Below, piece after piece: positions 1-10,675 of a DNA stretch of 10,675 nt. The translations under genes were made by a program, and so were the position numbers. The notes under the pieces are model-generated. The model was not told the DNA's origin. It did no database searches and saw nothing but the letters and a program-made list of their open reading frames with translations. This stretch comes from a virus (Duplodnaviria; Heunggongvirae; Uroviricota; Caudoviricetes). The stretch is taken from positions 1 through 10,675 of IMG/VR virus record IMGVR_UViG_2645727640_000051, one strand, 5' to 3'. Each line of letters starts with the position of its first letter. Position 1 is the first letter of the stretch.

Positions 1-531
1 TTATTCAGGCTTTTGTGGCCATTCGGGCTTTGCTGTATCCACACGGTTGACCAGAACGCTGTAGCGTTCCCATGACTCCAGTCGTGTACGCTCCTCATCC
101 GTCGCCATATTCAGCCTGACAGCGCGTTCCAGTGGCTGAATAACGCTTTCAGCTTCAGAAAGCAACGCGGCCTTTTGTGATTCGGCCTGTTGTTGTTGCT
201 CGTCTGCCGTATAAATCCGTTTAACCACAGCTCCGTCCCTAAACATCCACTTACCGGAATCATCAGCGCGGCGGTTGGCTGTAATATCTGGAACCTCAAC
301 GACGCTATAACCTTCAGGGTTAAGCGTGGAGGCATCTTTGGTGATGGCGACAATAATATTATTTGCATCGTAAACAATCTTTATTGTGTCTGGCTGAAAG
401 TTCTTCACTTCCTCATACCAGTTTTTTCCGTCTTCGGACCATAACCAGATAACATCAAAATTCTTTGTTAGCTGATATTGTTCTTTCGTTTTAGGATTTC
501 CAGACTTAATATTTTTTAAATGCTGCATCAT
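1..531 (-). CDS. Tail fibre assembly protein (Tfa; Mu U / P2 G / TfaE family)
   Basis: 176-aa ORF with tandem ATG start (MMQ...) placed directly after the stop of the upstream tail-fibre ORF (TAA-ATG-ATG). The C-terminal part (…[27 protein letters not shown]) resembles the conserved C-terminus of Tfa proteins. The window starts at its stop codon. Confidence 0.88.
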
Positions 532-1698
532 TTACACCTGTGCGACGTTATACCATGTGCCATTGATGTATTTTTGTATTGGCCTGAATACTGCTGGGTC
601 ATCACCATCAACAGCGCCAATAATGCCAAGCCCTGTAATTACATGACCTGATTTTTCATACATCACACCTTTTCGCATAGTCTGAACAACACGTGTACCC
701 AGGCGAACATCTTTTACATAGCGTGAATCAAAATTCCCCCAGTTGTTGGGCTGTATCTGACCGTTAACAGAAAATATTACCGAGTTATCTGTATTTCGCT
801 GACTATAGAAATGCCAGCCTGAATCATCACCAAGCTCTGCAACAGTTGGTCTTGACGAATTTCCCCACAAGCTAAATGATGCATTACGGGCAGCGGTATT
901 TGCACTTGAAAGTGTGAATAACTTACTTTCCCCAGCCTGAATACCCTTTAATGATATTGCTGAACCATTTATAAAGCGGAATACATGCACACCATTAGCA
1001 TAAGCATCCAGCACCCCATCACCATTTTGTTTAAACCCGGTATCGTTATCTCCTAAAACAATCGAGTTACCGCCAAGAGCACTGGATGTTCCGATGCCCA
1101 GTGCACCATTCAATTGACCGCCAGATAATGACAACGCCCCAACCTCAGCAGCAGTCGGTTTAATGTGCGAACTGTAAATTACATATACAGTTCCATCTGT
1201 CAGACCTGTTGGTTTATTCGCTGTATAAGATGGTGATGTATGAATCGTTACGCTGGCGTTACTGGTATAATCCCACTGAATATTAACACCTGTGGCGTAA
1301 TTACCTATTTCAACATAAACATCATAGGTATCACCGGATGTATTCACCCATGCAAAATTAGTAAATCCAACCGATGTCCGTCGCCATAATGCACCAGTAA
1401 TGCCTTTTGGATTCCCATTTCCTGCACGCAGAACCAGCTCAGAGATGCCTGCTTGATGCGAGGAGCCAACGTTATACCCTGCGCCACCAATCAGGCTTAT
1501 GTAAACCACGGAACTGGCTTGTGGCATTGTTACAGTTGCCAGTTTGAACCATCCAGCACCACCACTAAAAGACATGGTTGTTGAATTTGTTGTGCCGATA
1601 TTACGCAGGAATAGTTTTTTATCGGGAATATCTGCGCCGTTCTGGTTTTTCTGTAATGCACCAGAAGCCTGATTTACCGTTTCCTGTAAACCGAGGTT
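532..1698 (-). CDS. Tail fibre protein, variable C-terminal (receptor-binding) cassette; N-terminally open, no own start; currently in the non-expressed orientation of an invertible segment
   Basis: The ORF track gives 532-1575 from the first ATG, but the frame stays open upstream to 1698 and is closed only by a TAA (minus strand, 1701-1699) lying inside the recombination site. Gly/Ser/Thr/Asn-rich fibre-like composition, followed immediately by the tfa gene. This arrangement matches Mu Sv-U, P1 and e14 cassettes. Confidence 0.8.
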   Translation of the reverse strand, partial: NLGLQETVNQASGALQKNQNGADIPDKKLFLRNIGTTNSTTMSFSGGAGWFKLATVTMPQASSVVYISLIGGAGYNVGSSHQAGISELVLRAGNGNPKGITGALWRRTSVGFTNFAWVNTSGDTYDVYVEIGNYATGVNIQWDYTSNASVTIHTSPSYTANKPTGLTDGTVYVIYSSHIKPTAAEVGALSLSGGQLNGALGIGTSSALGGNSIVLGDNDTGFKQNGDGVLDAYANGVHVFRFINGSAISLKGIQAGESKLFTLSSANTAARNASFSLWGNSSRPTVAELGDDSGWHFYSQRNTDNSVIFSVNGQIQPNNWGNFDSRYVKDVRLGTRVVQTMRKGVMYEKSGHVITGLGIIGAVDGDDPAVFRPIQKYINGTWYNVAQV

Positions 1699-1706
1699 TT
1701 AGATAA
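1681..1706. other. Serine-invertase crossover site (gix/hix/cix/pix-type), 12-2-12 imperfect palindrome TTCCTGTAAACC-GA-GGTTTTAGATAA
   Basis: Read directly from the sequence: two 12-bp imperfectly inverted half-sites (…AAACC / GGTTT…) around a 2-bp core, located 55 bp upstream of the invertase start and overlapping the 5' end of the tail-fibre cassette frame. From memory it is near-identical to Mu gix. Confidence 0.8.
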
Positions 1707-1760
1707 TGGCGGTTTCTGGCCTGCATGGCATGATTTGTGCTTTTGGACGGGAGATTCAGC

Positions 1761-2351
1761 GTGCTGATTGGCTATGTAAGGGTATCAACAAATGACCAGA
1801 ATACAGACCTGCAACGAAACGCTCTTGTTTGTGCAGGATGTGAACAAATATTTGAAGATAAATTAAGCGGGACAAAGACTGACCGACCGGGATTAAAACG
1901 CGCTTTAAAGCGCCTTCAACAAGGTGACACGCTGGTTGTCTGGAAACTGGATCGCCTCGGGCGAAGCATGAAACATCTGATTTCTCTCGTCGGGGAACTA
2001 CGGGAGCGAGGGATTAATTTTCGTAGTCTGACCGACAGCATAGATACATCTTCTCCAATGGGGCGTTTTTTCTTCCACGTGATGGGTGCCCTGGCTGAAA
2101 TGGAACGTGAATTAATTGTTGAACGTACACTGGCCGGACTGGCGGCAGCGCGCGCACGGGGGCGCACAGGCGGACGTCGACCGAAGCTGACAAAAGAACA
2201 GCATGAGCAAATAGCAAGGCTGATTAAAAACGGTCACGACAGAAAACAACTGGCAATAATTTACAGCATTGGTATATCGACAATTTATCGTTACCACCCC
2301 GCAGGAGAATCAAGTGGAACAATTGAGAAGAGTAAACAAAATAACCGCTAA
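1761..2351 (+). CDS. Site-specific DNA invertase, Gin/Pin/Cin/Hin family (small serine recombinase)
   Basis: Translation from the GTG at 1761 gives MLIGYVRVSTNDQNTDLQRNAL…, the canonical N-terminus of this family, with the catalytic Ser in the VRVSTNDQ motif and a C-terminal HTH region. GGGAG lies 8 nt upstream. The ORF-track start at 1737 (also GTG) adds 8 non-conserved residues and is less likely. Confidence 0.93.
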   Translation: MLIGYVRVSTNDQNTDLQRNALVCAGCEQIFEDKLSGTKTDRPGLKRALKRLQQGDTLVVWKLDRLGRSMKHLISLVGELRERGINFRSLTDSIDTSSPMGRFFFHVMGALAEMERELIVERTLAGLAAARARGRTGGRRPKLTKEQHEQIARLIKNGHDRKQLAIIYSIGISTIYRYHPAGESSGTIEKSKQNNR

Positions 2352-2376
2352 TCTGGCCATTAGCGGTTTTTGTGTT
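2343..2376. terminator. Bidirectional intrinsic terminator between convergent invertase and U genes
   Basis: Perfect 10-bp inverted repeat AACCGCTAAT / ATTAGCGGTT (2343-2352 and 2359-2368) with a 6-nt loop, followed by TTTTTGTGTT on the plus strand and by AUUUUGUUU on the minus strand. The left arm contains the invertase stop codon. Confidence 0.7.
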
Positions 2377-2379
2377 AAA

Positions 2380-2874
2380 TCAGAACAGCCCTTTAACGGA
2401 GCTGGCCGCGCTGTTAAGGGATGATGTGACCTTATCTTTGAAGCCGGACAGCATATCGCTGAACGATGAGGATTGCAGGCGCTCCCGCAAATCCTCATCA
2501 CAGCGTTCAAGGGTCAGTGAAAACTCTATCTTTTTCGCCTTGCCGTAGCGATCAAACTCGGAACGGGTCGTATTCGTTTCAGTCAGTACATACATGCCGT
2601 AAATCTGCCCGACACCATCAATCAGAGGCCAGGGGCGTCCTGTATATGCCTGCGTGGTCAGCAACGAAAGCGACACTTCGCCACCTGTAATTTCAGGATA
2701 AAGCACGCCGGAAAGCACGATGCGATCATCACCTGCGCCGATATACTGCCAGCTTGCTGAACGGTTAACGCGTTCATTTTTCACATGCCGCCAGCTTTTG
2801 TTTTGCTGTAACTGCTGATGCGGCAATGTGCGCAGCTCAAAAACAAACATGCCGTAGATCATCATCATGGCCAT
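2380..2874 (-). CDS. Phage tail protein, P2 gpU family
   Basis: 164-aa ORF (…MFVFELRTLPHQQLQQNKSWRH…) in the position and of the size of P2 U, directly downstream of the tape measure gene. The true start may be the 3rd ATG (2868), since GAGGAG lies only 2 nt before the first ATG. Confidence 0.8.
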   Translation of the reverse strand: MAMMMIYGMFVFELRTLPHQQLQQNKSWRHVKNERVNRSASWQYIGAGDDRIVLSGVLYPEITGGEVSLSLLTTQAYTGRPWPLIDGVGQIYGMYVLTETNTTRSEFDRYGKAKKIEFSLTLERCDEDLRERLQSSSFSDMLSGFKDKVTSSLNSAASSVKGLF

Positions 2875-2880
2875 GACTCC

Positions 2881-5730
2881 TCAATCTTTATCGTAAAAAC
2901 TGCCACGCCCGGCACGGGCGCGCCGTTCCATTTCTGCCCTGACCATTTCGCCAACCAGTTTCGCCAGTTCGCGGGGATTCTGTGTAACAACGTTATGCAG
3001 ATGAACATGAATTTCACCGCCAAATCCGGAGGCAACAGGCTCCCGGTTACGGGAAGTTGCAGGAACTGATGCCACTGGCGATCGTATAGCCTCCGCCACC
3101 GGGCGGGAGCTGGCCGCAACAACAGGGACCAGCGCCGGAGGCAGCGGAGCCGGAACCACGGGTGTGATAGTAATTGCGGGGGCAGGCTTACTGACCTGCG
3201 CAATCTTCCGCTCCTGCCACTCCCCACGAACAGCAAGTGCGCGGGGCAGGTTCTTAAAGACAATATCGCCAGGGCCAATGCGTTTTTTCGTCTCATCAAC
3301 CAGCTTACCTGTGTTATCAGCAATTTTGCTGAGTCTGCGTAGCGTACCGGTATTGTTGTCTGTGAGCGGTTTGTTGTCTCTGGGTTTATCGCCTTTTTTG
3401 TCGTCGACCTTATCTGACGGGGCCGGGCCGGGAGTCCATGGTTTCTGAACCATTTTCTTGAGAACCGGATCCCATTCCCACATTACAGGAGCCTTTGAAG
3501 CGTTCTCTATTTTCTTTCTCGCCCGTTCCGCTTCATCCGGAAGCACTCCGAGCTTTTCAAGTATCCACGCCAGTGAATCCATCAATGCTTTTGTTGGCGT
3601 CAGGACAAGCTCTATCGCTCCACCGAGTACCCTGCCGAATACCTCGCCAGCACTGGTACATTTATCCAGCGTTTCCTTGCTGGACTCCATCGGTGACAGC
3701 AGCGATTTAAACCAGTTAAAGACCTGAATAATCCCATCGCGCACGACATCAAAAACTGGACCGAACCGTTCAAAGGTTTCGCGCAACGGAGCCAGCCGTT
3801 CCATAATCCCACTGAACACCCCTGCATAAAACGCCTTGATGGGTTCCCAGTATTTCCAGATGAGAACCGCCGCAGCCACAAACGCAGCAGCAATCAATCC
3901 GACCGGGCTGAACAGCGCCCCGATAGCGCCCCCCAGTAACGAAACGGAACCCGTCACCATTCCCCATAGTGCTGGCAGGAGCCTGACAGCATTCATTGAT
4001 CCGGTCAGGAGGGAAAAGCCAAGACGCAGTTTTGCCAGCGGGCCAGCAAGCACACCAATAGCCAACGACAACGAGCCGACCGTTGCAGTCATCGCCAGCA
4101 ATGCCCCACCTGCAATCAGTAGCTGGCGCGTCAGTGCCGGATGGGCCTGCGCCAGCGCCGTCACCTTTGATACCACCCGCGTGAGCCACTGCGTGACAGA
4201 ACGCAGCGGACCGTCAATCAGATCTGCAATGCGGATGCGCAACCCTTCCCATGCACTGCCGAGTGATTTCAGATCGCCGTCAAGGTTGTTGGCCATAACC
4301 TTTGCCGTGCGTTCAGCCTCACCGCGTGCGCCTTCAAGTTCTTTTCTCAGTTTAGGTAAGGATCCGTCACCTGCCGCATCAACGAGGGCCATAAATGATG
4401 TGAAAGCCTCTTCTCCGGCAATGTCCTTAAAGAACGATACCCGATCAACTTCTCCGTATTTGCGGGTGGCTTTATAAAGGTCAGTCAGCAGATCTTCCAT
4501 CGGGCGCATTTTGCCCCCGGCATCCGAGACAGACACGCCCAGCTCTTTCAGCGCCTCTGCTGCCGCCTTTGGCGGTGATGCCAGACGAGCCAGGCTGGCA
4601 CGCATTGCCGTCCCGGCATCACTTCCCCTGATACCCATATTCGCCAGCACGCCCGCCATCGCTGCGGCCTGCTCCAGCGATATTCCCAGCTTACCCGCCA
4701 CCGGACCTGCATATTTCATGGTTTCGCCCAGTGCGCGAAGGTCAGTGTTGGTACGGGTAAACGCTGCAGTGAGTGTGTCACCGACCCGGTCCATCTGGTC
4801 AGCAGAAAGGCCGAACTGCGTCAGGATATTTGAGCCAATATCCGCCGTCTCGCCGAGATCCATACCGCCAGCCGTTGCCATGCTCAACACGCCGGGAAGC
4901 GCAGCCTGAATGGCCTGCGGTGTGAAGCCAGCCATTGCAAGAAATGCCTGCCCACTGGCGGCATCGCCTGCGGTGAACTGCGTTTCAGAGCCAAGTTTTA
5001 ACGCCTGCTCACGCAGCGCCTTAAACTGCGGGCTGTTCTGGTCGATTCGCGTCAGCGCCTGAACGCGGGACATCTCTTTCCCGAACCCGATCGCAGGCTG
5101 CAAAAAACGCCCGGCAGCATAGCCGCCCGCCGCTGCCGCACCTGTTGCCAGTGCACCACCTGTTTTCAGTTTTCCCGCGGTTTCCTGCGCGCGCGAATAC
5201 CGCTCACGCGCCCGCGTTACACGCGCAAGCGCCTGCCGTTCGCGTTCAAGCTGGTTGTTGTACTGTTCGGTGCGTCTGATGGCCTGTTGAATGGTGTTAT
5301 CGCTGCCTGTCAGGGAAATGCCGTGGCGTTTCAGCTCTCCGCCAAGCTCCCGCATTTTCTGAATCTCCCGTGTGCGCGATTCATTCAGGCGTTCAAGCCG
5401 GGTGCTTAACTGCTGCATCAGCTTTTGTTGTTTTTCGCTGAGCACTGTACCCGTGTGTTGTAACTGATTAAGGGCGTTAAGCTGGCGTCGCGCTTTCAAT
5501 ATGCCAGCATCCGCTTTACTGACAGCGTCACGGGCGCGCTCAAATGAACGCGCCTGACGCTCGAGATTTTTGATCGCCCCCTGCGTTCGCTGGATGGAGT
5601 CACCAAACTGCCCCATCAGGCGGCGGGCGTTTTCGGCAGGCCGGGTCAGCCTGTCAACGGCGCTGAAAGCGACCCGGATATCAAGAGTCTTCATTGTCTG
5701 CATTCCCGCTGCGAAGTGCCGCCCGCTCAC
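2881..5730 (-). CDS. Tail tape measure protein, P2 gpT family
   Basis: Very long ORF, Ala/Gly/Leu-rich with a predicted coiled-coil N-terminal part and hydrophobic Gly-rich stretches, sitting between E/E' and U as in P2. The ORF-track start (5730) is a GTG; ATG starts at 5703 or 5694 (MKTLDI…, overlapping the E' stop) are more likely. Confidence 0.85.
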   Translation of the reverse strand: MSGRHFAAGMQTMKTLDIRVAFSAVDRLTRPAENARRLMGQFGDSIQRTQGAIKNLERQARSFERARDAVSKADAGILKARRQLNALNQLQHTGTVLSEKQQKLMQQLSTRLERLNESRTREIQKMRELGGELKRHGISLTGSDNTIQQAIRRTEQYNNQLERERQALARVTRARERYSRAQETAGKLKTGGALATGAAAAGGYAAGRFLQPAIGFGKEMSRVQALTRIDQNSPQFKALREQALKLGSETQFTAGDAASGQAFLAMAGFTPQAIQAALPGVLSMATAGGMDLGETADIGSNILTQFGLSADQMDRVGDTLTAAFTRTNTDLRALGETMKYAGPVAGKLGISLEQAAAMAGVLANMGIRGSDAGTAMRASLARLASPPKAAAEALKELGVSVSDAGGKMRPMEDLLTDLYKATRKYGEVDRVSFFKDIAGEEAFTSFMALVDAAGDGSLPKLRKELEGARGEAERTAKVMANNLDGDLKSLGSAWEGLRIRIADLIDGPLRSVTQWLTRVVSKVTALAQAHPALTRQLLIAGGALLAMTATVGSLSLAIGVLAGPLAKLRLGFSLLTGSMNAVRLLPALWGMVTGSVSLLGGAIGALFSPVGLIAAAFVAAAVLIWKYWEPIKAFYAGVFSGIMERLAPLRETFERFGPVFDVVRDGIIQVFNWFKSLLSPMESSKETLDKCTSAGEVFGRVLGGAIELVLTPTKALMDSLAWILEKLGVLPDEAERARKKIENASKAPVMWEWDPVLKKMVQKPWTPGPAPSDKVDDKKGDKPRDNKPLTDNNTGTLRRLSKIADNTGKLVDETKKRIGPGDIVFKNLPRALAVRGEWQERKIAQVSKPAPAITITPVVPAPLPPALVPVVAASSRPVAEAIRSPVASVPATSRNREPVASGFGGEIHVHLHNVVTQNPRELAKLVGEMVRAEMERRARAGRGSFYDKD

Positions 5731-6219
5731 GCCAGCTAACCACTTCGCCGGGCGTCATCATGAAGATTTCGGCGGGCGACCAGTTAAAAATGGCGGCAAT
5801 ATCCGCCACCAGATCTTCGATGTGCTCAAAGCACACCAGGGTGATTACGCTGCCGTCTCCTGCACGCTCTTCGCGCCAGAGTCTGGCTCGCTCATAAAAT
5901 TTACAGCCACAGCGCACAACTGAATAAAATCGCGTGACGACATTTTTTTAATCATCACTTCATCCAGTCGTGGCGAGGTCACGCGAGGCAACAGCGTGAA
6001 CATGGTATCCGCTTTCAGATTCAGCACATCAGACAGCGACAGACCACGCAGGGATCCAGCCTGCTCAATAGCCCCGGTGATCTCCACATACGTGATTTTT
6101 TCGCCACCACGCTCAATTGGTCGGGTCAGTTTTACGCCACGTTCGACAGCCATATCCTCACCTGCCGTCACATCATCCGCCACGGTGTTATTCCGGGTTT
6201 CAGTATCGATGTCTTTCAT
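5681..6219 (-). CDS. gpE+E' fusion product made by programmed -1 translational frameshift (inferred)
   Basis: The -1 frame relative to E is open from the TAA at 5950-5948 to the TGA at 5683-5681 and overlaps the last ~35 codons of E. The conserved G/GT- and E/E'-type frameshift is established for tail chaperone genes upstream of tape measure genes. Confidence 0.6.
5845..6219 (-). CDS. Tail assembly chaperone, P2 gpE family
   Basis: 124-aa ORF immediately downstream of the tail tube gene, with a strong RBS (AAAGGAGA, 6 nt spacer, ATG at 6219). Its position between the tube and tape-measure genes is that of the lambda-G / P2-E chaperone. Confidence 0.75.
   Translation of the reverse strand: MKDIDTETRNNTVADDVTAGEDMAVERGVKLTRPIERGGEKITYVEITGAIEQAGSLRGLSLSDVLNLKADTMFTLLPRVTSPRLDEVMIKKMSSRDFIQLCAVAVNFMSEPDSGAKSVQETAA
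5943..5949 (-). other. Candidate slippery run (A7 on the coding strand) for the E to E' -1 frameshift; alternative canonical heptamer A-AAT-TTT at 5896-5902
   Basis: On the coding strand the sequence reads ATT AAA AAA ATG in the E frame, and the -1 frame opens exactly here (its stop TAA is 5950-5948). A second in-frame X-XXY-YYZ heptamer, AAATTTT, covers E codons N107-F108. Which one is used cannot be decided from sequence. Confidence 0.35.
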
Positions 6220-6274
6220 CAGTTGTCTCCTTTTCAGTCAGAGGCGACGCACTGCGCCGCCTGCATATTACTTA

Positions 6275-6787
6275 TCAGCCAAGCCCAAGCGCGGAACGGA
6301 TACGGTCAGGCACAATGTCCTTGCCGTCCTTCCGGTAGATGTGGTTCAACAGGTCGATTTCCCACAGCGGGCGATCGTTAACGCTCAGCTTGTAGTAGGT
6401 GTTTTTGACAGCGTAAGTGTGTGATGTGGCTTCGCCCTGTTTGGCTTCCCCCATATCAATTTCCGTCACACGTCCGCGCATCTCGATTTCATACAGATCG
6501 CTTTCTGCATCGGTGTAGTATTCACCCGCAAAACGCAGCAGCGTGCCGTCAATCGTGCCGCCATATTTAAGGAACAGCGCACGAACAGCTCCCCCCATAA
6601 CAAAACTCGCATCAAGCGCGGAGTCGTCCAGACCGAGATCAATACTTACCGCCCCCATCATGCCACCACCACGATAGCTGTCGGTTTTGCGCGTCAGTTT
6701 GGGCGGCGTGACGGATGTCACTTTACCCACTTCGTTTTCACCATCCACAAACAACGTAAAAAAGCGAAGATGTTTTGGTACAGCCAT
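6275..6787 (-). CDS. Tail tube protein, P2 gpFII family
   Basis: 170-aa ORF whose start overlaps the sheath gene stop by one base (TGATG), in the position and of the size of P2 FII. Confidence 0.85.
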   Translation of the reverse strand: MAVPKHLRFFTLFVDGENEVGKVTSVTPPKLTRKTDSYRGGGMMGAVSIDLGLDDSALDASFVMGGAVRALFLKYGGTIDGTLLRFAGEYYTDAESDLYEIEMRGRVTEIDMGEAKQGEATSHTYAVKNTYYKLSVNDRPLWEIDLLNHIYRKDGKDIVPDRIRSALGLG

Positions 6788-7971
6788 CAGGCACCTCCCA
6801 GCACCGCAAATGCGGGACCAAAGAATTCATCAGTAAACGTCTGGTAAAGCTCCATGTCTTCCAGTGGCGGAACGGGCGTATATTTGTAGCGAATACGCAC
6901 ACGTCCCTGACGTAAATTCGTGGTGCCGTTATCCACCACGTCATACCAGCACTCCGCACCAATCAGTTTCCCGGCAGTAACCAGCGAATCCAGTTTTGCC
7001 CTGATGGCACTGATAACATCCTTCACGTTCGCAGGCGTCAGTGGACTGTCGATGGTTTCAAACTGCGCTTCCGCAATTGAATCAGCCAGCACCTGTGCGG
7101 TTCGGGTATACACCTCAAAGATGTAGGCGTTCGTTTCCGGTGTGCGGTTGCCCCAGAAGCGGAACCCGTTGCGACGAATAATGGTCGTGATTTCTTTGTT
7201 ATTGAGGCTGTTGGCATCACTGTCTTCGGCCTGCAACGACCAGAACACATGCCTGGACATTCCCAGCACATTTTTAACCGGAACGTTGGACAGCGATTTG
7301 TGCCAGCCCTGCTCATGGTCAATGTACGCACGAAGGCCGCACGCATAAGCAGGCGCGGGGAACGTTTCGTTTTTGCCACTTTTCGGGTTGTAGGCGATGA
7401 AGTCAGGCCATAAGAGCATCACCTCACGTTCGTTGAATTTCTGGCGGTAGGTAATCGCCTCAGCCATCGTGTTACAACCATGACATGTGGCATACACAAA
7501 CGCGCGCAGTTTACCCGCAATCACGCACAGGGATTTTGTTACCGCCTCCGTGTCCAGCTCCGGCGCGGCCAGAATACGCGGACGGTATCCGATGCTTTCA
7601 TCCTGCTCTGCAACAAGCAGCGCATACATCCCCGTATAGCTGCCGTCATCCTCAGAACCACCGATAACCAGTTGATCCTGCGTCTTTCCGTCTTCTTCTT
7701 TGTGTTCAGCCACGCGAACGACGATCACCTTTGTGCTCACCTGGTCTGCGATGGCCTTAAGCGCACGATAAAGCGTCCCCGTTGTTCCGCATTTTCCCAG
7801 CACGTCATTGACGCGGGTCAGCAGTGTGGGCTTGTTCAGCGGGAACAGCTTCGCGTCCGCATCATCCGCCGTTGCCACGATACCGATAACGCTGGAATCA
7901 ACATCGTTAATCGCTGTTACCAGGTCGGTATTTTCCGTAACACGGGCACCATGAAAACGAGTTTCACTCAT
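6787..7971 (-). CDS. Contractile tail sheath protein, P2 gpFI family
   Basis: 394-aa ORF with several stretches recalled as conserved in P2 FI (…WPDF…, …FRFWGNRT…YTRTAQV…, …Y.YTPVPPLE…), and the right size. Confidence 0.9.
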   Translation of the reverse strand: MSETRFHGARVTENTDLVTAINDVDSSVIGIVATADDADAKLFPLNKPTLLTRVNDVLGKCGTTGTLYRALKAIADQVSTKVIVVRVAEHKEEDGKTQDQLVIGGSEDDGSYTGMYALLVAEQDESIGYRPRILAAPELDTEAVTKSLCVIAGKLRAFVYATCHGCNTMAEAITYRQKFNEREVMLLWPDFIAYNPKSGKNETFPAPAYACGLRAYIDHEQGWHKSLSNVPVKNVLGMSRHVFWSLQAEDSDANSLNNKEITTIIRRNGFRFWGNRTPETNAYIFEVYTRTAQVLADSIAEAQFETIDSPLTPANVKDVISAIRAKLDSLVTAGKLIGAECWYDVVDNGTTNLRQGRVRIRYKYTPVPPLEDMELYQTFTDEFFGPAFAVLGGA

Positions 7972-8127
7972 AGCTTCAGCCCCTTGTATCCGTTAAATGA
8001 TTCGGCAACAATCATCACCCACCACGCGCGTAATCTCACCCCTGCGCCGTTCTCCCGACCCGGCGACAACAAAAAGCAGTAACCCCCTCCGCACGCACAT
8101 GCGACCATGCCGCACAGGGAGGGAAAG
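7972..8127. promoter_or_regulatory. Divergent intergenic region expected to carry the late promoters for the FI operon (leftward) and for D (rightward)
   Basis: 156-bp gap between the divergent starts of FI (7971, minus) and D (8128, plus). This is a positional inference; no canonical sigma70 or Ogr box could be confirmed by eye. Confidence 0.35.
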
Positions 8128-9237
8128 ATGACCGACACCACCATGCAATTGCTCAGTCAGGGCACAGACCCCGTGAAAATGCCGGATTTTGATATTCTCG
8201 CGGAGGGTAAAACGCTGTCAGGCGTGGCAGAGCGCCTGATGAGCCTGTCACTGACCGACAACCGGGGATTTGAGGCGGACCAGCTCACCATCACGCTGGA
8301 TGATGCGGATGGTCAGTTGCAGCTACCGCCACGGGGCGCGCGCCTGACGGTTCTCATTGGCTGGAAAGGAGAACCGCTGACAGAAAAAGGCACTTACATT
8401 GTTGATGAAATCGCTCACGAAGGACCGCCGGACAGGCTGACTGTTTCAGCCAGAAGCGCAGATTTTCGGGATGAATTTAACGTTAAACGTGAGGTGTCAT
8501 GGCATGATGTGACCGTTGAGCGTGTGGTATCCGCCATCGCTCATCGGTACGGCCTGAAACCGCAAATCAGCGAAATGCTGATGGATATCGAAATCGACCA
8601 CGCCGACCAGACTGAAGAAAGCGACATGTCCTTCCTTACGCGCATGGCGGAAATGCTGGGCGCAATCACCACGGTAAAAAGCGGTAATCTGTTATTCATC
8701 ATGCCCGGCGGTGGCGTGAACGCACAGGGCCAGCCGTTGCCATCGTTCGCCATCACACGCAGCAGCGGCGATCGCCATCAGTTCCGCATTGCTGACCGCG
8801 AAGCGTATACGGGGGTACGCGCTTACTGGCTTGATCTTAATTACGGGAAAAAGAAAAAAGTCAGCGTGAAACGCCGCAAACCGCCAAAACCCAAAAAGGA
8901 GAAAAGCAGCAGCCGTGAAGGTGATTATATGGAAGGCGCGGAAGGCAATGTGTTTGTGTTACGCAAAACTTATCAGAACGAGCAGGCAGCAAGACGCGCA
9001 GCAGCGGCAAAGTGGCAGCAGCTACAACGCGGAGCCGCATCATTCTCCATCACGCTGGCGCGTGGACGTGCAGAACTCTACCCTGAAATGCATGGCACGG
9101 TGACAGGCTTCAAAAATGACATCGACAATCAGGACTGGATTATTGCAAAGGCCGAGCACACCATTGATAACAGCGGTTTTACCACGCAGCTTGAGCTTGA
9201 AGCAAAAATTCCTGACTGGATAGCGGAAACTGAATAA
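8128..9237 (+). CDS. Phage late control / tail protein D (P2 gpD family)
   Basis: About 370-aa ORF immediately upstream of ogr, as in P2 (D-ogr). The start at 8128 (MTDTTMQ…) is preceded by GGGAGGG; the ORF-track start at 8107 lacks an RBS. Confidence 0.8.
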   Translation: MTDTTMQLLSQGTDPVKMPDFDILAEGKTLSGVAERLMSLSLTDNRGFEADQLTITLDDADGQLQLPPRGARLTVLIGWKGEPLTEKGTYIVDEIAHEGPPDRLTVSARSADFRDEFNVKREVSWHDVTVERVVSAIAHRYGLKPQISEMLMDIEIDHADQTEESDMSFLTRMAEMLGAITTVKSGNLLFIMPGGGVNAQGQPLPSFAITRSSGDRHQFRIADREAYTGVRAYWLDLNYGKKKKVSVKRRKPPKPKKEKSSSREGDYMEGAEGNVFVLRKTYQNEQAARRAAAAKWQQLQRGAASFSITLARGRAELYPEMHGTVTGFKNDIDNQDWIIAKAEHTIDNSGFTTQLELEAKIPDWIAETE

Positions 9238-9275
9238 AATGAAATGGAGTTCAACTCTCACGGGGAGTCATCATT

Positions 9276-9524
9276 ATGTTCAGATGTCCATTCTGCGGCG
9301 CTATGGCCCGCACCCGCACCAGCCGAAGAATGACCAACATGACAATCAGGCAGTATCACCAGTGCCAGAATCTGGAATGTAGCCGGTCATTTACCACGCT
9401 TAATAGCGTGGAAAGGGAAGTCACAAAGCGCGCAGGTATTGCGCCGTTACCGCCTGACTTCATACCCCACGATGCCTTTCCGGCGTCTCACTACGGAAGG
9501 GATCAACTAAGCCTGTCATTGTGA
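9276..9524 (+). CDS. ogr: Ogr/Delta-family zinc-finger late transcription activator
   Basis: 82-aa ORF with a Cys-X2-Cys…Cys-X4-Cys pattern (MFRCPFCGA…HQCQNLEC) typical of P2 Ogr, 186 B and P4 Delta. GGGGAG RBS 8 nt upstream. Position after D, as in P2. Confidence 0.85.
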   Translation: MFRCPFCGAMARTRTSRRMTNMTIRQYHQCQNLECSRSFTTLNSVEREVTKRAGIAPLPPDFIPHDAFPASHYGRDQLSLSL

Positions 9525-9626
9525 TAAAACCCCACTAACATGCGGGGCTTTATCATTGTTATGTGGACACTTTTGTCGAAGTGTAGTCAATATGTAGACG
9601 AAGTTTAGGATAAATCCTTTTGTTCC

Positions 9627-9649
9627 ATAAGGTTAAGGGCGAGATTTTT
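9627..9649. other. Candidate attR core region (tentative)
   Basis: Sequence ATAAGGTTAAGGGCGAGATTTTT resembles, from memory only, part of the P2 att core (…ATAAG…TAAGGGAGATT), and sits where attR is expected between ogr and host DNA. Unverified. Confidence 0.2.
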
Positions 9650-9665
9650 CCCCATCCCTGTCTTC

Positions 9666-9691
9666 CCCCACATGATGTGGGGTTTTTTTTT
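9666..9691 (+). terminator. Intrinsic terminator (GC stem CCCCAC…GTGGGG followed by a T9 run)
   Basis: Hairpin CCCCACATGATGTGGGG followed directly by nine T residues on the plus strand. It would stop ogr/D read-through before fieF. Whether it is phage- or host-derived is unknown. Confidence 0.75.
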
Positions 9692-9772
9692 ATCCTCAAT
9701 TTGCCTGCTGCTTAATGCATTGCAGATGATTTGCTTCCGTTATACTAGCGTCAGTTGATAGCGGGAGTATTT

Positions 9773-10675
9773 ATGAATCAATCTTATGGACGGCTGGTCA
9801 GTCGGGCGGCGATTGCTGCGACGGCGATGGCTTCGTTGCTATTGCTGATTAAAATTTTTGCATGGTGGTATACCGGGTCGGTGAGTATTCTCGCCGCGCT
9901 GGTGGATTCGCTGGTGGATATCGGCGCGTCGTTGACGAATTTACTGGTGGTGCGATATTCCCTGCAACCTGCCGACGATAATCACTCGTTTGGGCACGGT
10001 AAAGCAGAGTCCCTCGCGGCGCTGGCGCAAAGTATGTTTATCTCCGGTTCGGCACTATTCCTGTTTTTGACGGGTATTCAACATCTGATATCTCCAACAC
10101 CGATGACAGATCCAGGCGTCGGGGTTATCGTGACAATTGTGGCGCTAATTTGTACGATTATCCTTGTCTCGTTTCAGCGTTGGGTGGTGCGCCGGACGCA
10201 AAGCCAGGCGGTGCGGGCTGATATGCTACATTACCAGTCTGATGTTATGATGAACGGCGCAATTCTGCTGGCGCTGGGGTTGTCCTGGTACGGCTGGCAT
10301 CGCGCCGATGCTCTGTTTGCATTGGGAATCGGCATCTATATTTTATATAGCGCGTTACGCATGGGATATGAGGCGGTACAGTCATTACTGGATCGCGCAT
10401 TGCCTGATGAGGAACGGCAAGAAATTATTGATATCGTGACTTCCTGGCCGGGTGTTAGCGGCGCTCACGATCTTCGCACGCGGCAGTCAGGGCCGACCCG
10501 CTTTATTCAGATTCATTTGGAAATGGAAGACTCTCTGCCTTTGGTTCAGGCACATATGGTGGCGGATCAGGTAGAGCAGGCTATTTTACGGCGTTTTCCG
10601 GGATCGGATGTAATTATCCATCAGGACCCCTGTTCCGTCGTACCCAGGGAGGGTAAACGGTCTATGCTTTCATAA
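9773..10675 (+). CDS. fieF: Cation-diffusion-facilitator ferrous-iron/zinc efflux transporter FieF (YiiP)
   Basis: Translation from the ATG at 9773 ([38 protein letters not shown]…) matches enterobacterial FieF: 300 aa, multi-TM N-terminal domain, cytoplasmic C-terminal domain. GGGAG RBS 5 nt upstream. The ORF-track start at 9755 is a TTG and is rejected. Confidence 0.93.

Follow-up and report, generated by a model that had tools for sequence, protein, structure and literature searches.

The frameshifted E+E' protein of phage P2 is reportedly made at a level of about 10% and is said to be essential for tail assembly. P2 gene E yields a protein of 91 aa and, via a -1 shift at the sequence TTTTTTG, an E+E' protein of 142 aa, with no downstream structure being known (PMC3091744). 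The P2 frameshift was described by Christie et al. (2002, J Bacteriol 184:6522; via PMC3091744 and PMC5009743), and P2-like phages frameshift 2-3 times as efficiently as the lambda G-T pair (PMC5009743). The lambda gpG/gpGT pair itself, and the conserved tail-assembly-chaperone frameshift of long-tailed phages to which it belongs, were treated by Levin (1993) and by Xu, Hendrix and Duda (2004), as reviewed in PMC5009743.

The stretch of DNA analyzed here (the window) comprises 10,675 nucleotides, positions 1 to 10,675 of IMG/VR record IMGVR_UViG_2645727640_000051, and represents the minus-strand tail operon of an E. coli prophage that is P88-like (Xuanwuvirus) and belongs to the P2 family. Pfam matches give the gene order FI-FII-E-E'-T-U on the minus strand, as in annotated relatives, and place the E/E' pair after the tail tube gene FII and before the tape-measure gene T in a contractile-tail operon (Table 1). 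A 701-nt query around the site of interest shares 99.3-99.7% identity with Xuanwuvirus P88_4B11, Citrobacter phage Shae_phiSM and Escherichia phages 520873 and 503458, and 86.5-87.2% with phage P88, Chuche, PhiR44_2 and 500465-2 (all Peduoviridae). Two Xuanwuvirus clades are accordingly distinguished below, that of the window and that of P88. The E/E' region is also 99-100% identical in many E. coli prophages; the region has matches in 1374 of 5426 complete E. coli genomes, one of them at 100%, and in about 600 of the 5426 the identity is at least 95% when the alleles are pooled.

Table 1. Coordinates of the E/E' pair, its sequence elements and the neighboring genes in the window.
Feature	Coordinates	Strand	Remarks
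Gene E, putative tail assembly chaperone, 124 aa, frame 0	5845..6219	-	ATG 6219, TAA 5847-5845; phrog_103 1e-36
Shine-Dalgarno AAGGAG	6227..6232	-	7 nt before the E start codon; read from the sequence
TAA of the -1 frame, upstream bound of the open -1 frame	5948..5950	-	Clade-specific; CAA in the P88 clade
A7 run (Lys91-Lys92 and the A of Met93)	5943..5949	-	Rejected as shift site
Slippery heptamer A_AAT_TTT (Asn107-Phe108), candidate -1 shift site	5896..5902	-	In phase; invariant; homologous to the P2 site
Dual-coding stretch, last 17 E codons and first E' codons	5845..5895	-	Window-versus-P88 substitutions; -1-frame motif
E' extension, 71 codons, -1 frame	5681..5896	-	TAT 5896-5894 to TGA 5683-5681; PF06528, phrog_1756
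FI, sheath	7971-6787	-	Pfam
FII, tube	6787-6275	-	Pfam
Gene T, tape measure	2881..5694	-	Pfam PhageMin_Tail 4.6e-58; start codon ATG 5694 from the NC_049391 annotation
gpU	2874-2380	-	Pfam
DNA invertase, serine type	1737-2351	+	Pfam
gpD (Phage_GPD)	8107-9237	+	Pfam

The surroundings of the operon have several features of their own. The invertase gene adjoins tail-fibre and tail-fibre-assembly genes (Caudo_TAP at 1-531), and positions 1-2351 of the window are probably an invertible host-range segment like those of Mu gin and P1 cin. The gpD gene lies beside ogr, upstream of FI and on the opposite strand, whereas the FETUD operon of P2 has gpD downstream of U. An ogr/delta-like zinc-finger gene (9276-9524) is followed by a host cation-efflux gene (9755-10675; Cation_efflux and ZT_dimer), and the end of the prophage is therefore placed at about 9525-9754. 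In 2014C-3075, whose E region is 100% identical, the prophage lies beside flk instead. Finally, 34 nt of the E'/T overlap (5726-5759) match, at 100%, a feature annotated as 'CRISPR' in E. coli GmM066 (NZ_CM183652.1), which suggests a host spacer aimed at this phage family.

An earlier note on this DNA, made from its letters, had assumed a start of gene E at 6219 and described two possible slippery sites in it, an A7 run next to the TAA of the -1 frame at 5950-5948 and an in-phase A_AAT_TTT at 5896-5902, and this layout was recovered in full. On the coding strand the first site reads ATT AAA AAA ATG, with its seven A's at 5949-5943, and the second reads GT[A AAT TTT] ATG, in the X_XXY_YYZ phase; no other in-phase X_XXY_YYZ sequence occurs in the whole E gene. 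The fusion of about 179 aa expected from either site was likewise confirmed, as 108+71 residues for the heptamer and 92+87 for A7, and so was the overlap of the -1 frame with the start of the tape-measure gene, which amounts to 14 nt counted from the annotated ATG (5694). The length of the -1 frame, given as 87 codons, is counted here as 88 sense codons (5947-5684). The open overlap between E and the -1 frame spans 34 codons, and shuffling of the E codons produces an in-phase heptamer within the last 34 codons in 9% of cases and a -1 frame open for that length in 8%. Since both the heptamer and the open frame are thus within reach of chance, the sequence alone is not significant, and the case rests on homology and conservation.

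Homology to the P2 pair extends over both parts of the predicted protein. In the -1 frame there is a match to Pfam PF06528 (Phage_P2_GpE), with 2.9e-12 and 46.3 bits (cut-off 23), and phrog_1756 matches the -1 segment at 7.8e-38, beginning with the first residue after the heptamer. The match of E to Pfam Phage_TAC_7 (PF10109) is weak, at 20.6 bits and below the cut-off of 25, and NCBIfam holds no model matching E or the fusion. When the conceptual heptamer fusion is compared with P2 E+E' by BLASTP, the two align as a single segment across the junction (1e-28, 33% identity), and Phe108 aligns with the Phe of the P2 G-F-L sequence, encoded by GG[T TTT TTG] and marked 'site of -1 translational frameshift' in the P2 record. 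The match to Phage_P2_GpE and the alignment of the fusion bear out the earlier assignment of the locus to the E/E' arrangement of P2-like phages. Alignment with P2 E/E' had also been proposed as a way of learning which of the two sites is conserved, and here the two part company: A_AAT_TTT lies at the homologous Phe codon of P2 and is invariant in 37 distinct Xuanwuvirus-type sequences, whereas A7 is absent from the wider family.

Coding constraint also changes at the heptamer. In the 16 codons between A7 and the heptamer, the window and P88 sequences differ in frame 0 by 7 synonymous and 2 non-synonymous changes and in frame -1 by 0 and 10, and 9 of the 15 sites that vary among the 37 sequences are frame-0 third positions. 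Between the heptamer and the E stop, the corresponding counts are 2 and 8 in frame 0 versus 6 and 4 in frame -1. In frame -1, a purifying-selection pattern thus follows the heptamer, and the -1-frame motif W-x-x-E-R-x-G-D-G within the dual-coding stretch is conserved across genera. The reversal of the substitution pattern directly after the heptamer argues that -1 translation would start there, not at A7, and upstream of a GTG codon at 5836 that is considered below.

A shift at A7, through -1 slippage of tRNA-Lys or through transcriptional slippage by RNA polymerase, would likewise give a fusion of 179 aa, reading ...MIKK/NVVTRFYSVVRCGCKFYER... at the junction. In favour of such a shift, homopolymeric A runs are prone to slippage, and no heptamer is more under-represented in E. 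coli genes than AAAAAAA (PMC4066793); moreover, A7 is conserved in both Xuanwuvirus clades, and the open -1 frame of the window clade begins just upstream of it. The phase of the run is AAA AAA A, however, whereas tandem slippage would need T_AAA_AAA, and in the P88 clade (ACG ATC AAA AAA ATG GCA TCC CGT GAC) a -1 TGA within CGT GAC separates A7 from E', so that in this clade translation shifted at A7 would end short of E'. The frame-specific counts given above for the codons following A7 also speak against it, and the run itself is explained by the coding of Lys-Lys-Met. For efficient transcriptional slippage, moreover, a run of seven A's is short. A7 was rejected as a ribosomal or transcriptional slippage site on its phase, the TGA of the sister clade and the substitution pattern, and a shift there is regarded as highly improbable. 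The competition between two sites described in the earlier note is therefore not supported, and A_AAT_TTT is the conserved candidate. The position of the A run directly after the -1 stop, which had been described as an unusual geometry, is a coincidence, the TAA arising because the window clade has ATT as the Ile codon that precedes Lys-Lys.

In the GenBank/RefSeq records examined, E' (5681-5836) appears as a 51-aa GTG ORF under the names 'tail protein', 'tail fiber protein' or 'GpE family phage tail protein'. The frameshift is annotated in no record of this set, and the Shae_phiSM record omits E' altogether.

It is conceivable that no frameshift takes place and that E' is a separate protein of 51 aa initiated at GTG 5836, a codon that is indeed present and that agrees with the treatment of E' as a separate ORF in the public annotations examined for this phage group. 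No Shine-Dalgarno sequence lies 5-12 nt before this GTG, however, the nearest GGAG being 21 nt away, and the codon is not conserved, with GTT or CCG in its place in relatives. In addition, conservation and synonymous-type variation in frame -1 start at the heptamer, 20 codons before GTG 5836, the phrog_1756 match covers this upstream part of the segment as well, and in P2 it is by frameshifting that E is extended into E' (P2 record; PMC3091744). Independent initiation at this codon is unlikely, and an E' made entirely without frameshifting has very little probability.

Another possibility is that several sites are used in the window clade, the heptamer together with either A7 or the in-phase GA[T_TTT] at 5929-5926, producing minor isoforms with different linkers. 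The -1 frame of this clade is open across the heptamer, A7 and GA[T_TTT], and U_UUU tetramers shift at 0.8% when a stimulator is present (PMC4066793). At the position of the tetramer, however, the P88 clade has GAC TTT, which is not slippery, with a TGA just before it, and constraint on frame -1 is absent upstream of the heptamer; any extra products would be adventitious and not under selection. The use of several sites is thus given only a slim chance, and E+E' is very probably produced by a -1 frameshift at A_AAT_TTT (5902-5896).

The wider family was surveyed through 160 related loci; with the window and phage records added, these amounted to 154 distinct E/E' sequences drawn from many genera, chiefly of the Enterobacterales. 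The sequence NNT TTT TTG occupies the homologous x-Phe-Leu codons in nearly all of the 154 distinct loci, with an occasional TTA or TTC. Six loci were scored as site-less by script, of which two are truncated (L088, L132), two have a single frame (L008, L011) and two were mis-parsed (L068, L082); in the mis-parsed pair the -1 frame is open far upstream, and the T-run is still visible in the -1-frame translation. The two single-frame loci come from Symbiopectobacterium MAGs, as prophages of insect symbionts, and have E and E' in one continuous frame, which represents either a hard-wired fusion or an indel/pseudogene.

Within Xuanwuvirus, the P88 clade has GTA AAT TTT TTG, in which A_AAT_TTT and T_TTT_TTG overlap, and the window clade has GTA AAT TTT ATG, in which A_AAT_TTT alone survives, T_TTT_ATG not being a heptamer. 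The P2-type heptamer T_TTT_TTG at the conserved x-Phe-Leu codons is thus absent from the window (AAT TTT ATG), and its loss is a difference in signal, not in gene family. The ATG allele was also found on a P88-type background with the -1 TGA, in one fetched locus (L125) and four IMG/VR contigs. Direct inspection of the open overlap of L125 revealed A_AAT_TTT as its sole canonical heptamer, and the four contigs agree with it in their list of heptamers and in the 28-codon length of the overlap. The E gene of E. coli AHB24 (L168) is a mosaic of a window-type N-terminal part and a P88-type C-terminal part with the TTG allele and the -1 TGA. Taken together, this mosaic and the occurrence of the ATG allele on a P88-type background point to recombination within E or recurrent mutation. 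All ATG-allele sequences among the fetched homologues have GTA as the codon preceding AAT, and two TTG-allele relatives (L130, L131) have GTT. IMG/VR scans with GTBAATTTTATGAGC and GTBAATTTTTTGAGC returned random matches, E' being encoded by 0 of 240 among the matches listed.

A Klebsiella-type clade (L133-L156, L023-L024) has GTC CCT TTC TTG about 19 codons before the E stop. Its T6 run is broken by a synonymous change from TTT to TTC, so that C_CCT_TTC is the only heptamer left, an independent parallel to the window clade. A further variant occurs in a sequence labelled Vagococcus sp. WN89Y (L010) that is Enterobacterales-like, and the label looks like contamination. This locus reads ACG ATA AAA AAA ATG, an A8 run that includes an in-phase A_AAA_AAA; its -1 frame is open from A8, and three heptamers lie in the overlap.

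Stimulated -1 frameshifting of the dnaX or IS-element type involves a hairpin or pseudoknot 5-9 nt downstream of the slippery site and/or a Shine-Dalgarno-like sequence upstream of it, and the window falls outside this class. A stretch of 111 nt around and downstream of the site folds no better than its shuffles (z = -0.36), and the nearest hairpin in the centroid fold starts 14 nt after the heptamer. Similarly, a consensus fold of 14 diverse relatives (-2.76 kcal/mol) has no pairs near the site, and no Shine-Dalgarno-like element was found upstream of the heptamer in the window sequence. In P2 and its close relatives (e.g., L004, 1668-1692), Shine-Dalgarno-like AAGGTGGT/AAGGTGAT sequences, which span Lys-Val-Val/Ile codons, lie 3-4 nt upstream of T_TTT_TTG, and these are absent from the window clade.

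The intrinsic slipperiness of the motifs can be gauged from reporter work in E. coli, where H_HH.U_UU.Y heptamers are among the most efficient and UUY in the A site surpasses UUG and UUA (Sharma et al. 2014, PMC4066793). For AAAUUUU, the -1 rate was 0.070% with no stimulator, 0.355% with IS911 stimulators and 11.4% with the IS3 pseudoknot; the respective rates were 0.118%, 0.247% and 0.765% for UUUUUUG, and 0.193%, 1.39% and 23.2% for CCCUUUC (PMC4066793, Table S3). The unstimulated value for AAAUUUU is close to the reporter background of 0.055% (PMC4066793). By these reporter data, the heptamer of the window is intrinsically better than that of P2 when stimulated, and both are near background when unstimulated. 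As with the X_XXU_UUY reporter heptamers, tRNA-Asn would occupy the P site and a UUN codon the A site in the window, and A_AAU_UUU is frameshift-prone in that setting when stimulated; the reporter systems, however, rely on a downstream pseudoknot or hairpin, and none is detectable in the window. The gag-pol site of Rous sarcoma virus, A_AAU_UUA, is also close to A_AAU_UUU. The gap between the rates of the bare motifs and the rate reported for P2 is not specific to the window.

In the mechanism proposed for this locus, most ribosomes translating E would terminate at the TAA at 5847-5845 and release a 124-aa chaperone, gpE. A minority would slip back by one base on A_AAU_UUU, either through the tandem movement of the P-site tRNA-Asn and the A-site tRNA-Phe or through tRNA-Phe alone on U_UUU, with the same protein resulting either way. 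Translation would then continue in the -1 frame from the TAT at 5896-5894 (Tyr-Glu-Arg...) to the TGA at 5683-5681, giving the 179-aa E+E' protein with a predicted junction of ...AVAVNF/YERARLW... and DFIQLCAVAVNFYER as the heptamer junction peptide. E' would be expressed only as the C-terminal part of this protein. By analogy with P2 gpE/gpE+E' and lambda gpG/gpGT, E and E+E' may coat the tape-measure protein while the E' domain recruits tail-tube subunits, and neither of the two would be expected to end up in the virion.

The likeness to P2 is close in arrangement. In both P2 and the window the pair is placed between FII and T, the -1 shift (a predicted one in the window) falls on the homologous Phe codon in the last part of E, E' has no independent start and extends into the beginning of T, and downstream RNA structure is found in neither. 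Differences concern the signal and the dimensions of the proteins: the window has the heptamer A_AAT_TTT, the T_TTT_TTG of P2 being destroyed by a TTG to ATG (Leu to Met) change, and its E has about 22 extra N-terminal residues. Moreover, the dual-coding tail spans 17 codons in the window versus 7 in P2, and the E' linker of the window is 10 residues longer; the placement of gpD, as mentioned above, differs as well. The lambda system is alike in having its chaperone genes between the tail tube and tape-measure genes, in a -1 shift of low frequency, on a heptamer close to the 3' end, that sets a fixed ratio of short to long chaperone, and in not requiring a stimulatory structure. Unlike the P2 pair, however, it has no sequence similarity to the window, its heptamer is G_GGA_AAG, and the lambda tail is non-contractile.

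The window thus represents the known P2-type E/E' recoding in a very common prophage family that lacks its annotation, with a variant heptamer that overlaps the canonical position, and the understanding of the mechanism is unchanged by the finding. A rather doubtful further reading starts from two points: the T_TTT_TTG of P2 has been lost here while E' is kept under selection, and bare heptamers shift at about 0.1% in reporters, the native rate of P2 being said to be about 10%. On this reading, Xuanwuvirus-type phages, and maybe also the many relatives with C_CCT_TTT_TTG, would use the upstream X_XXT_TTY and not T6G as the effective shift site, and shifting throughout the P2 family would depend on an unrecognised stimulator other than RNA structure, such as the nascent peptide or the local mRNA context.

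The main value of the finding lies in annotation, as 1374 of 5426 E. coli genomes are matched and E' is listed as a free-standing ORF in the records examined. Beyond this, the TTG to ATG allele indicates that the T_TTT_TTG of P2 would be dispensable given an overlapping A_AAT_TTT, and the P88-type and window-type alleles form a ready pair for measuring how the identity of the heptamer affects the ratio of E to E+E'.
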